Shown: one piece after another, positions 3,421 to 6,201 of the stretch
Position numbering within the stretch: the first letter of the stretch is position 1
Layout: every line of letters starts with the position of its first letter
Source of the DNA: Escherichia phage JP4
Length of the DNA: 64,000 nt
Sequence record: PQ330092
Strand: one strand, 5' to 3'
Program-made: the position numbers and the translations under genes
Notes under the pieces: model-generated
Databases searched by the model: none
Told to the model about the DNA's origin: nothing
Seen by the model: only the letters and a program-made list of their open reading frames with translations

Positions 3421-3762
3421 ATGCTTGAGTTTTTTAATTCAGATACAATGCTTGGTATCACGCTAATTTACATGTTTGTATTCTTGTTTTATCATTCAAT
3501 TGTAATTAGTCTTTGGTATTTTAAAAGGAAAGTTGTTTTTAAATTGTATTCGTATGATAATGTACTCTTAGTAGTATATAGCATTATACAAGGTGGGTTT
3601 ATTTTATTTGGTGTGATGACATATGTGATTTACATGTTACAAATTGATAATACACCACACATTACACAATATGTTGTGTTTTCAGGACTAATCGTCTGGT
3701 TATTGGTGTGTACTCTGTATTTTATTATTAAAGCTCGTGATAACTTTAAATGGGGATTCTAA
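3421..3762 (+). CDS. small polytopic membrane protein, paralog 1 of 8
   Basis: Starts MLEFFNSDTM; several hydrophobic helices by eye; basic C-terminus. Confidence 0.8.
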   Translation: MLEFFNSDTMLGITLIYMFVFLFYHSIVISLWYFKRKVVFKLYSYDNVLLVVYSIIQGGFILFGVMTYVIYMLQIDNTPHITQYVVFSGLIVWLLVCTLYFIIKARDNFKWGF

Positions 3763-4100
3763 TGTTAGAATTTTTTAAATCAGATACAATGATTAGTATT
3801 ACTTTGATTTATCTGTTTGGTTTTTTCTTTTATCATGCACTAGTTGTAGTACTATGGTATTTTAAAAAGAAAATTGTTTTTAAACTGTATCCAGTGAGGA
3901 ATTCATCACTAGTTCTTTACACACTTGTTCAAGGTTTGTTTGCAATTGTTGGTCTTATGGCACACTTAATTTATTGTGCCAATCCTCACTTGAACTCAAT
4001 CTCACAATATATTGTATTCTTTGGGTTGTTCATTTGGTTAGTTGTATACTTAATCCATCTCATTATTCATGGTAGAGATAAAATTCGCGGAGACTTCTAA
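3762..4100 (+). CDS. small polytopic membrane protein, paralog 2 of 8
   Basis: Start moved from track ATG 3750 to ATG 3762 (TAATG overlap). The product then starts MLEFFKSDTM, aligning with paralog 1. Confidence 0.75.
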   Translation: MLEFFKSDTMISITLIYLFGFFFYHALVVVLWYFKKKIVFKLYPVRNSSLVLYTLVQGLFAIVGLMAHLIYCANPHLNSISQYIVFFGLFIWLVVYLIHLIIHGRDKIRGDF

Positions 4101-4447
4101 TGTTTGAAGCTTATCTTGAGTTTTTAAGGAGTAGTCCAGTTGCACATTCACTTGCAGGGATTATTCTAACAACTTATGTATCATTTTGGGTAGTTATGTT
4201 TCTAGGATGGTATTTTAAACGACAATTCTATAAACGTAATGGTGAAGATTTTATGAATTCTGTCATTAATCAATCGTTGTTTGCATCAACATTGATTGCA
4301 TGTATTGTAGCAACACTCACAGGAAAGGTACTACCAGCTTTTTCCGCAGTTTACGGCACACTTGGGATGATATGTTTAACTTTTATATTGACCATTAAAA
4401 TTTGTTGTGTTATGATTGAACTTCGAAATAAGATACCGGAGGAATGA
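4100..4447 (+). CDS. small polytopic membrane protein, paralog 3 of 8
   Basis: TAATG start/stop overlap; hydrophobic helices. Confidence 0.75.
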   Translation: MFEAYLEFLRSSPVAHSLAGIILTTYVSFWVVMFLGWYFKRQFYKRNGEDFMNSVINQSLFASTLIACIVATLTGKVLPAFSAVYGTLGMICLTFILTIKICCVMIELRNKIPEE

Positions 4448-4782
4448 TGGAGTACTTTATTGATTTACTGCCGTGGTATATGAAAGTTAGTACCATGTAC
4501 TATATTATTAGTGCTGGATTCTACTTTCTGATGTGGTTCTTTAAACGACCAATTTCAGTATTCATCGCTGATAACATGTTGCAATTAAAATTACACGCAT
4601 GGTTTGGTATGGCGATGATTATGCCTATTATTCACTACTCAATGATTAGTAGAGGTTTCCATTCTAATGGTGAACCAATTGTATTAGTATTCTATTGGGG
4701 TTCAACTATTGCATATGTAAGTTTGTTGTTGTTCCCAGTCGTTCATAAGTTACGTGCTAAAGTTCCTGATGCGAGGTACTAA
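4444..4782 (+). CDS. small polytopic membrane protein, paralog 4 of 8
   Basis: ATGA overlap with the previous gene; hydrophobic helices. Confidence 0.75.
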   Translation: MMEYFIDLLPWYMKVSTMYYIISAGFYFLMWFFKRPISVFIADNMLQLKLHAWFGMAMIMPIIHYSMISRGFHSNGEPIVLVFYWGSTIAYVSLLLFPVVHKLRAKVPDARY

Positions 4783-5096
4783 TGGATATAGTAACATTGA
4801 TTTACACGTTGTATTCATTCTATTTCATTATGTGTTGGGTTGGATTTTTATTTGTACTCAAGATGTTTGATTATGTTGAAAAACAGATAAAAGAATTTTG
4901 TATTCCTTTTATCGGTTCAACCATTATTAGTGTTTCTTGTGTGTATTTTTTGGTTTTTGATCCACCAGATAACACTGCAATGATTGACTTGATGTTACTA
5001 CCAACAACTGTTACTTTTTTATGTAGTCTGATGCCGCCGATTAGCCGTGGGCTAACCGAATTTAGACGCAATCAAAAGCGTAAACGAGGGATGTAA
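4782..5096 (+). CDS. small polytopic membrane protein, paralog 5 of 8
   Basis: TAATG overlap; hydrophobic helices; C-terminus RRNQKRKRGM. Confidence 0.75.
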   Translation: MDIVTLIYTLYSFYFIMCWVGFLFVLKMFDYVEKQIKEFCIPFIGSTIISVSCVYFLVFDPPDNTAMIDLMLLPTTVTFLCSLMPPISRGLTEFRRNQKRKRGM

Positions 5097-5464
5097 TGGA
5101 AATTGCTCTTATTATCTTAACTGCTATGCTGTTTATTAGTACTGTGGTTATAATTGGTAAATTCTTTTGTGTATCATTTTTAGAAACGGTATACGATGAA
5201 ATTTCTGATGATTATGAATTACAAGCCGGATTTTTCATTACGTATTGGCTTAGTTTATTTTGTCTAGTCATTGCTTGGATTTTACATATCTTTAAATGGG
5301 GTATGGTAGACGGTGATCCTATTATGGCAATTATTGTTCTAGTGTTTGGTATCCTTGGTGGTGCAGTGCATAATCTAATGGTTATCTGGCAAACTGTTCA
5401 ATATGTTTTGGTTCCCTATTTCGAAAAGATGCACAGTACAATTAAAAAACGTAAACGAGGTTAG
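5096..5464 (+). CDS. small polytopic membrane protein, paralog 6 of 8
   Basis: TAATG overlap; hydrophobic helices; C-terminus IKKRKRG. Confidence 0.75.
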   Translation: MEIALIILTAMLFISTVVIIGKFFCVSFLETVYDEISDDYELQAGFFITYWLSLFCLVIAWILHIFKWGMVDGDPIMAIIVLVFGILGGAVHNLMVIWQTVQYVLVPYFEKMHSTIKKRKRG

Positions 5465-5465
5465 T

Positions 5466-5828
5466 ATGAACGGGATAGAATTATCTTTCGTTGGTCAATT
5501 ACTAGTAATGGCGTATACATTTATCTTCTCACTGAATGCATTCGTGTGCATTGGGAAGTACTTCCATAAGCGACCATTATCAAATATATATGATGTAATC
5601 CAAAAGAGATATAGTCCAGCATATACTGTGTTGGGTACAGTATTCAATTTTGGTTTTATTGTATTAATAATTGGACTGTTCACATCCTCTTTGAATACAA
5701 TAACCTTCGGTCTTATGATATGTTCATTGGTATTAGCCGTAATTATATGTTGTTTAGTACTACACCTTGTGATACTATTATATATAAAGATCTCTGAAAT
5801 CCACCAACGTTTGGGTATGAGGAAATAA
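5466..5828 (+). CDS. small polytopic membrane protein, paralog 7 of 8
   Basis: Start moved from track ATG 5403 (inside the previous gene) to ATG 5466, 1 nt after the previous stop. Confidence 0.7.
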   Translation: MNGIELSFVGQLLVMAYTFIFSLNAFVCIGKYFHKRPLSNIYDVIQKRYSPAYTVLGTVFNFGFIVLIIGLFTSSLNTITFGLMICSLVLAVIICCLVLHLVILLYIKISEIHQRLGMRK

Positions 5829-5829
5829 T

Positions 5830-6201
5830 ATGAGTTACCGTGAGATATTTTCCATTATTTCAATTATTATGTTCAGTACTGGAACACTGGTATGGTTATT
5901 ATATTTCTTCTGTATTAATCCAGTGTATAATATGTTATGTAATATTAAATCAAGTGCCGGATATATCACTTTTATGGTCTTTATGGGATATTATTGTCTA
6001 AGCATTTTAGGTGTTGTTTTGGTTGTTATATTTGATGTGGGGCCAAATAGTGATGGTATGGAAATACATGAATTAATAACCATGTTTGGATGTATGATAC
6101 CAACAGCACTACTGTTTGTAGCTACTGGTAGTGGATTGATAAAATTATATAATTATTTAAAATCCATTCATAATTCCATTCATAATAAGCGTATGTCATA
6201 A
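5830..6201 (+). CDS. small polytopic membrane protein, paralog 8 of 8
   Basis: 1-nt gap after the previous stop; hydrophobic helices. Confidence 0.75.
   Translation: MSYREIFSIISIIMFSTGTLVWLLYFFCINPVYNMLCNIKSSAGYITFMVFMGYYCLSILGVVLVVIFDVGPNSDGMEIHELITMFGCMIPTALLFVATGSGLIKLYNYLKSIHNSIHNKRMS

Follow-up and report, generated by a model that had tools for sequence, protein, structure and literature searches.

Tandem arrays of related three-helix membrane-protein genes in Escherichia phage JP4 and other RaK2-like jumbo phages

The stretch of Escherichia phage JP4 analysed here (record PQ330092; 64,000 nucleotides, hereafter the window) carried eight small open reading frames (ORFs), M1 to M8, which packed positions 3421-6201 end to end on one strand and encoded proteins of 104-123 amino acids (aa) belonging to one family of predicted membrane proteins (Table 1). 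An earlier note written from the letters of the window had described such a set of coupled ORFs, and inspection of both ORFs and genes agreed with it. The phage is an Asteriusvirus of the RaK2-like group, jumbo myoviruses of ~350 kb. Region 3300-6300 was 99.7% identical to Escherichia phage SP27 and ~98% identical to 121Q, and PBECO4 could be aligned from M2 on at ~98% identity. For most jumbo-phage genes no function has been assigned, and genes for host takeover and conflict are believed to lie in the early regions of these genomes.

The junctions between the eight genes were of the types that had been claimed: TAATG overlaps at M1/M2, M2/M3, M4/M5 and M5/M6, an ATGA overlap at M3/M4 (TGATG if M4 begins at the second ATG), and 1-nt gaps between M6 and M7 and between M7 and M8. 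Every start codon was preceded at -9 to -11 by a Shine-Dalgarno sequence (GGAG, GAGG or GGGG), embedded in the coding tail of the preceding gene. For M4, the start at 4447 is likelier than that at 4444 because its orthologues begin MEYF. A longer ORF for M7, starting at 5403, was considered and rejected. M7 is missing from the SP27 GenBank record, in which a 62-aa antisense ORF was called instead (L001 7196-7384, minus strand; handles of this kind mark the loci of relatives); PBECO4 likewise lacks it, and slurp01, fEgEco12 and ph0011 annotate it. A consequence for annotation is that M7 is an array member absent from the SP27 record.

Table 1. Coordinates of the array, its promoter and hairpin, and the upstream ATPase gene in the window (TM, transmembrane helix; classes A to G are explained in the text)
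Feature	Position	Strand	Description
NrdC.10-like P-loop/AAA ATPase	2583-3353	+	256 aa; phrog_1250, E 3e-103; outside the 3-TM family
Sigma-70-type (early-type) promoter	3363-3391	+	TTGACA-17-TACTAT; promoter scan score 10/12
M1	3421-3762	+	class A, 113 aa, 3 TM; phrog_19454 match
M2	3762-4100	+	class A, 112 aa, 3 TM; phrog_19454 match
M3	4100-4447	+	class B, 115 aa, 3 TM; tail ...ELRNKIPEE; phrog_19046 match
M4	4444 or 4447-4782	+	class C, 112 or 111 aa; phrog_27396 match
M5	4782-5096	+	class D, 104 aa, 3 TM; tail RRNQKRKRGM; phrog_33258 match
M6	5096-5464	+	class E, 122 aa, 3 TM; tail IKKRKRG; phrog_26405 match
M7	5466-5828	+	class F, 120 aa, 3 TM
M8	5830-6201	+	class G, 123 aa, 3 TM; phrog_27618 match
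G+C-rich hairpin	6208-6231		ATCCAGTACT..AGTACTGGAT; closes the operon

The single promoter that had been placed ahead of the array was borne out by our promoter scan and by its conservation: PBECO4, slurp01, fEgEco12 and ph0011 had it too, and JNE01 had it in the form TTGACA-17-TACAAT. Its -10 element ended 29 nt ahead of the M1 ATG, and it overlapped an 8-bp inverted repeat, AGTACTAC/GTAGTACT, lying between the hexamers. Four high-scoring sigma-70-type sites were found in the first 3.4 kb, each ending 26-29 nt ahead of the ATG that opens a transcription unit, and no T4-type late motif TATAAATA was found in the first 10 kb of the window. In phage CBB, clusters of RpoD-like promoters with short ORFs were described as early host-takeover genes (PMC5259590). 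At the other end of the array, PBECO4, slurp01, fEgEco12, ph0011 and JNE01 shared the stem of the 6208-6231 hairpin, whereas its loop varied; in the window the T-run of the hairpin lay on the minus strand only, and the hairpin is probably a terminator or an RNA-stabilising hairpin. As read from the sequence, the locus is one transcription unit: a sigma-70 promoter of host type leads into the eight genes, which are coupled in translation, and the hairpin closes the unit.

Other transcription-related motifs were seen in and around the array. The core CCAGTAC...GTACTGG recurred in the intergenic hairpins at 6208-6231, 7357-7375 and 8633-8651, and may represent a motif for termination or RNA processing that is specific to the phage. 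Near-identical cassettes of ~40 nt (aagggTTGACTtcggtcagccYtttttGcTATAAT) lay at 1106-1140 and 2520-2554; in both, a stem-loop with a T-run, terminator-like for the upstream gene, overlapped the -35 to -10 region of the next gene's strong promoter. A sigma-70-like site with an extended -10 TG (TTGACC-17-TATGAT, 4388-4416) was situated inside the 3'-terminal part of M3, at a distance of 30 nt from the start of M4, and could be an internal promoter or a chance match. Promoter-like sites in the array region were no commoner than in shuffled sequence (66 found, 59 expected).

Each of the eight proteins, for which several hydrophobic helices and basic tails had been noted, had three Kyte-Doolittle peaks; those of TM1 and TM2 in M4 were weaker, yet aligned with the corresponding peaks of other members. 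Grand average of hydropathy values were 0.61-1.07, and the quoted tails RRNQKRKRGM, IKKRKRG and GRDKIRGDF were correct. Lysine and arginine numbered ~58 in loop 1 and the C-terminal tail and ~6 in the N-terminal tail and loop 2, an asymmetry that predicts an N-out/C-in topology. An AlphaFold2 model of M2 built from a family alignment also had three long helices, spanning residues 8-33, 48-73 and 75-110, and a further, short helix in a juxtamembrane position, with a mean predicted local distance difference test score (pLDDT) of 72. In GAP32, the depositors of the genome had independently labelled the array genes '3 transmembrane domains shown using TMHMM 2.0 and Phobius', and our family profile matched five of these six genes at 9-38 bits.

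To describe relationships among the proteins we compared arrays from Asteriusviruses, RaK2, Erwinia phage Hallingskeid, Salmonella phage Munch, GAP32, CBB, Yersinia phage fHe-Yen9-04, Xanthomonas phage XbC2 and a metagenomic contig. Asteriusviruses and RaK2 shared seven ordered orthologous classes, A comprising M1 and M2 and B to G corresponding to M3 to M8 in order. M1 and M2 were homologous, as had been claimed (51% identical, E 4e-42), and the others were indeed more distant, the best BLAST matches among pairs other than M1/M2 reaching only ~1e-3. We built class profiles from orthologues and compared the 21 class pairs with hhalign, using reversed profiles as controls (maximum score 19.3). 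Nine of the 21 pairs outscored every control: B-C (47.7, with 95% probability), E-G (36.3), E-F (32.9), A-B (29.9), F-G (27.8), B-F (24.4), C-E (24.1), A-C (20.8) and B-D (20.7). The class-pair alignments were collinear and almost full-length; class D (M5) had the weakest direct links, its best scores being 19-21 against the control maximum. Sequences from relatives bridged the classes. Hallingskeid 4497-4841 matched A, B and C at 27, 19 and 18 bits, Hallingskeid 6311-6670 matched F, E, D and G at 49, 31, 14.5 and 11 bits, and RaK2 5988-6341 matched E and F at 45 and 24 bits, compared with ≤5 bits for other TM ORFs of the window and for unrelated 3-TM proteins of the same size from these loci, the latter reaching no more than 2.5 bits. 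In an alignment of 40 members, a phenylalanine, F34 in M1, was invariant (40/40) in [W/K][Y/F]F[K/C] right after TM1, and arginine or histidine occupied one position, R106 in M1, in all 40 right after TM3, in [L]xxx[R/H]xK[I/L]. Because the profile comparisons, the bridging members and the 40-protein alignment agree, we conclude that M1 to M8 share a common ancestor and form one paralogous family. Against a family hidden Markov model (HMM) each of the eight reached 62-82 bits and no other TM ORF in the window exceeded 4 bits, though the former scores are partly circular since the alignment behind the model includes the eight.

That no known family is recognisable, as had been judged by eye, was also the outcome of database searches. 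Scans of the array proteins against Pfam, NCBIfam and PADLOC returned nothing above threshold, the best PADLOC defence model being PycTM for M2 (E 0.029, 12 bits; not significant). PHROGs yielded only self-families of unknown function (19454, 19046, 27396, 33258, 26405 and 27618), apart from an additional match of M3 to phrog_16874, 'membrane protein' (1e-5). A sequence-profile search of the PDB gave only designed or unrelated TM proteins (E > 0.006), and Foldseek with the M2 model against BFVD and PDB gave nothing at E < 1. We found no account in the literature of the array as a family or of its function; known beforehand was a 'membrane protein' label on part of the array in a few records, and the family-level analysis appears to be new. 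The nearest described genes are GAP32_522-527 and their counterparts in, among others, CBB, fHe-Yen9-04 and RaK2. These belong to the same family or superfamily, share the size and three TM helices and likewise lie downstream of an NrdC.10-like gene; they differ from the window proteins in their low sequence identity, reflected in the profile scores given above, and exist only as an annotation label.

The array was syntenic in every RaK2-like jumbo phage examined and occurred in no other phage examined. A word-indexed search with the family profile through 5.8 billion proteins returned 23 matches, and an exhaustive HMMER search through 1.84 billion proteins returned 30 clusters at 50% identity. 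All matches were 56-141 aa long and all those read were visibly family members; among those with a visible source, every one came from a jumbo phage or a metagenome contig and none from a bacterial or non-jumbo context. The family is therefore small and confined to the RaK2-like clade. Within that clade membership varied, with array totals from ~3 in Munch to 10 in Hallingskeid. Class A was doubled only in the SP27/121Q/ph0011 lineage: M1 was not found in PBECO4, slurp01, fEgEco12, A4 or JNE01 and is a lineage-specific duplicate of M2, which has orthologues in A4, JNE01 and RaK2. JNE01 carried two class D members, RaK2 carried two of class B and none of class F, and one member was split in CBB. 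M4 (class C) represented the most conserved class, at 66% identity to A4, 51% to JNE01 and 37% to RaK2, and M8 had a RaK2 orthologue at 110 bits. Salmonella SD-x_S phages were dropped as evidence of gene loss, as their neighbouring genes were also widely fragmented and assembly error is possible. A second gene of ~255 aa inside the arrays of GAP32, CBB, Yen9-04 and XbC2 was considered as a second ATPase and rejected; it showed no similarity to the upstream ATPase and had no Pfam match.

Directly upstream of the array promoter lay a gene for an NrdC.10-like ATPase with weak matches to AAA/STAND families in Pfam and 38% identity to T4 NrdC.10 over 246 aa. T4 NrdC.10 is itself of unknown function (PMC1524935). 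T4-type proteins have ~75 extra N-terminal residues compared with the window ATPase and, unlike it, are not followed by 3-TM genes; the idea that small TM genes follow T4-type NrdC.10 was dropped, as none do. An ATPase gene lay 5' of the array in every RaK2-like phage examined. The gap was only 1-10 nt in Hallingskeid, GAP32, CBB, fHe-Yen9-04, Munch and the metagenome contig, one or more other ORFs intervened in RaK2, XbC2 and A4, and Asteriusviruses had a separate promoter between the two. The NrdC.10 homologues of T4-like phages, Xanthomonas phage BUDD, Vibrio phages PVA23 and SD25, and PA5oct were longer, had no 3-TM array after them and were placed among nucleotide and replication genes. 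Among Asteriusviruses the ATPase gene occurred as two deeply diverged alleles (~58% identity) in a mosaic pattern, and a 372-aa gene resembling HNH/homing endonucleases was found two genes upstream, at 1396-2514; both are consistent with frequent recombination in the region.

Pairwise ratios of nonsynonymous to synonymous divergence (dN/dS) were calculated against PBECO4, fEgEco12 and ph0011 for M genes with enough divergence to measure. They ranged from 0.10 to 0.38 (0.19 for M1, and 0.37 for M7 in the frame annotated here), compared with 0.02-0.03 for the ATPase at comparable divergence, and therefore indicate real genes under weak purifying selection. Positive selection was considered and dropped, every pairwise value being below 0.4. 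Synonymous divergence (dS) from fEgEco12 was 0.12 for M4, 0.97 for M6 and 1.5 for M8, a roughly ten-fold spread between neighbouring genes; such jumps imply recombination breakpoints inside the array, with members recombining singly. In slurp01 and fEgEco12, which have one class-A gene, that gene was identical to M1 in its leader and first 30 nt and matched M2 in the remainder, a chimera attributable to unequal crossover between tandem copies. In A4 the ATPase was 96% identical and the array proteins were 25-66% identical, and ph0011 presented the opposite pattern (58% and 72-88%, respectively), so ATPase and array alleles reassort. Within the proteins, identity across orthologues was 0.43-0.44 for the cytoplasmic loop and tail (0.41-0.44 with TM1 and the N-terminal tail) and lower, at 0.25-0.31, in TM2, periplasmic loop 2 and TM3. 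As traced in these sequences, members of the family are duplicated, deleted by unequal crossover and recombined one at a time, and occasionally they decay.

This mode of evolution told against one part of the earlier note, which had proposed that the proteins are expressed in fixed stoichiometry, possibly as a hetero-oligomer. Translational coupling of all array genes, as a fixed complex would require, is present; however, membership ranges from about three to ten with classes duplicated, lost or split, and the breakpoints within the array contradict a set inherited as one block. The variable membership, the single-gene recombination and the unequal-crossover chimera together contradict fixed stoichiometry. 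Large eukaryotic DNA viruses have multigene families, such as MGF110/360 of African swine fever virus (ASFV) and the 'genomic accordions' of poxviruses, that are likewise built of tandem paralogues in a variable genome region, with copy number changing by unequal recombination under relaxed constraint. Their proteins and hosts are unrelated to those considered here, and the analogy is one of evolutionary mode only.

From the architecture, timing signals and evolutionary mode, we tentatively favour, at less than even confidence, the reading that the array encodes inner-membrane proteins of a birth-and-death family, expressed early, whose role is to condition the host envelope, perhaps through exclusion or the evasion of defences. 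Host RNA polymerase would read the operon early in infection, and the products would enter the inner membrane of the host and work there as parallel modules, each replaceable on its own, not as parts of a single fixed complex. The two cytoplasmic-face motifs, after TM1 and after TM3, would provide a shared scaffold anchoring each member, and the fast-evolving TM2-loop2-TM3 hairpin would give each its own target. Conditioning might block DNA entry of competing phages (superinfection exclusion) or, alternatively, neutralise membrane-embedded host defence or abortive-infection effectors, and changes in the repertoire would fit hosts and competitors that themselves vary. T4 Imm and Sp are small, early, inner-membrane superinfection-exclusion proteins encoded by single genes, Imm having two TM helices. 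The array proteins resemble them in being small, predicted to be in the inner membrane, preceded by an early-type promoter, carried by a T4-related myovirus, probably dispensable and fast-evolving, and differ in forming a tandem 3-TM family; no homology to a known exclusion protein emerged from the PHROGs, Pfam, PADLOC and NCBIfam scans. Several points weigh against envelope conditioning. Early timing is inferred from the type of promoter, and pairwise dN/dS gave no sign of positive selection, although some sites should show it if the proteins were engaged in an arms race. The conserved motifs might be topogenic features of a general kind (aromatic belt, positive-inside rule), and part of the conservation of the C-terminal tails may reflect the embedded Shine-Dalgarno sequence of the next gene, as where KRG is coded aaacgaggg and PEE ccggaggaa. 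The A-G order kept between Asteriusviruses and RaK2, together with tight coupling, would also fit a complex. Of the roles listed in the earlier note, the data discriminate only weakly among exclusion, remodelling, a channel and decoys.

The main rival is a hetero-oligomeric inner-membrane assembly working with the adjacent NrdC.10-like ATPase. It could serve replication or genome handling as an anchor or platform at the membrane, or be an ATP-driven device for transport or insertion, with docking on the conserved cytoplasmic motifs. The constant position of the ATPase gene 5' of the array in every RaK2-like lineage examined, at 1-10 nt in most genera, speaks for such an assembly, as do the translational coupling of the genes, the class order common to Asteriusvirus and RaK2 and the placement of the most conserved residues on the cytoplasmic face. 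We nevertheless consider it unlikely, given that ATPase and array alleles reassort in A4 and ph0011, that the array has its own promoter in Asteriusviruses, that NrdC.10 homologues elsewhere reside among nucleotide and replication genes with no array, and that copy number varies from about three to ten with classes lost or doubled. A bolder version, which we regard as quite improbable, is that the ATPase and the 3-TM proteins constitute a new, clade-specific membrane machine of RaK2-like jumbo phages. The small AAA-type ATPase would dock on the cytoplasmic phenylalanine and arginine/histidine motifs of exchangeable 3-TM subunits and act early, for instance in completing entry of the 350-kb genome or in membrane tethering or shielding of the genome.

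Equally improbable, in our estimate, is a role confined to the phage's own cycle, in which the proteins would remodel the membrane to provide sites where the very large capsid or portal is assembled or replicating DNA is anchored, with no part in conflict. The presence of the family throughout one jumbo-phage clade and nowhere else suits this role, as does an envelope-related DUF1190 lipoprotein encoded next to the array in A4, RaK2 and GAP32; core morphogenesis, however, predicts a stable copy number and strong constraint, whereas dN/dS here is roughly ten-fold that of the adjacent gene, members come and go, and the promoter is of early type. Class I holins such as lambda S105 have ~105-120 aa, three TM helices, an N-out/C-in topology and a short basic cytoplasmic C-terminal tail. 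By prediction only, the array proteins share this size, topology and charged C-terminus, which raises the possibility that they are holin- or antiholin-like proteins controlling how the membrane is permeabilised, in lysis timing, lysis inhibition or early depolarisation. This we think very unlikely. No holin-family match was found in Pfam, PHROGs or NCBIfam; the promoter is of early type with no late TATAAATA motif, and the neighbours are the ATPase, HNH endonucleases and small ORFs instead of a lysis cassette. Class I holins are single-gene and known holin/antiholin systems use one or two genes, unlike the seven to ten paralogues of the array. The endolysin is encoded elsewhere in relatives (CBB_187; 121Q gp532; PMC5259590). 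Lastly, T-rich DNA favours phenylalanine, leucine and isoleucine codons, and the AT skew at 4001-6000 is -0.17, so that the ORFs might be chance hydrophobic frames in AT-rich DNA. That reading is practically untenable, being refuted by comparative data: the dN/dS values, orthologues 25-66% identical across genera that retain Shine-Dalgarno sites, and residues invariant across 40 proteins.

The array clearly marks the RaK2-like phages throughout their clade, and the orphan family of membrane proteins that it encodes grows and shrinks in the manner of multigene families in large eukaryotic viruses. Should its members prove to be exclusion or anti-defence factors, as under envelope conditioning, they would constitute a compact natural library of membrane-acting specificities. 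If instead they work with the ATPase, they would offer the first functional handle on a protein conserved in >1,200 T4-like and jumbo phage genomes.

Further conserved genes accompanied the array in relatives. Besides the DUF1190 lipoprotein (L003 7136-7687, L008 7131-7727 and L013 10064-10687), a conserved 3-TM protein of another kind, with the motif LDY/W..xxDKL, came after some arrays (L008 6714-7058, L009 8375-8689 and L017 6329-6670); together they suggest a larger envelope-related module. Both follow the array in relatives only and were absent from the window. A conserved soluble ORF of 42-43 aa (MKPEQWII.DMR...YL.LL.WYVKV) lay in or beside the array in RaK2 (L008 4153-4284, unannotated), Hallingskeid (L009 4850-4978) and the metagenome contig (L017 5705-5836), and Munch had a 42-aa ORF in the corresponding place (L012 7781-7909), whose sequence was not read. 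The C-terminus of this ORF resembled the N-terminal tail of M4, EYFIDLLPWYMKV (window 4450-4488; tblastn within the window, E ~0.03), and no free-standing copy of it occurred in the window.

Elsewhere in the window, positions 26792-43886 and 46906-64000 formed an exact tandem duplication with 0 mismatches at an offset of 20,114 bp, the second copy running past the window end. This is either a direct terminal repeat joined head to tail in the source record or an assembly artefact; the relative CBB has terminal repeats of 22.5 kb. A convergent array encoding RCC1-repeat paralogues occupied 6887-9828 and beyond on the minus strand, a short way downstream of the locus, and these genes are labelled 'DNA condensation protein' in relatives.

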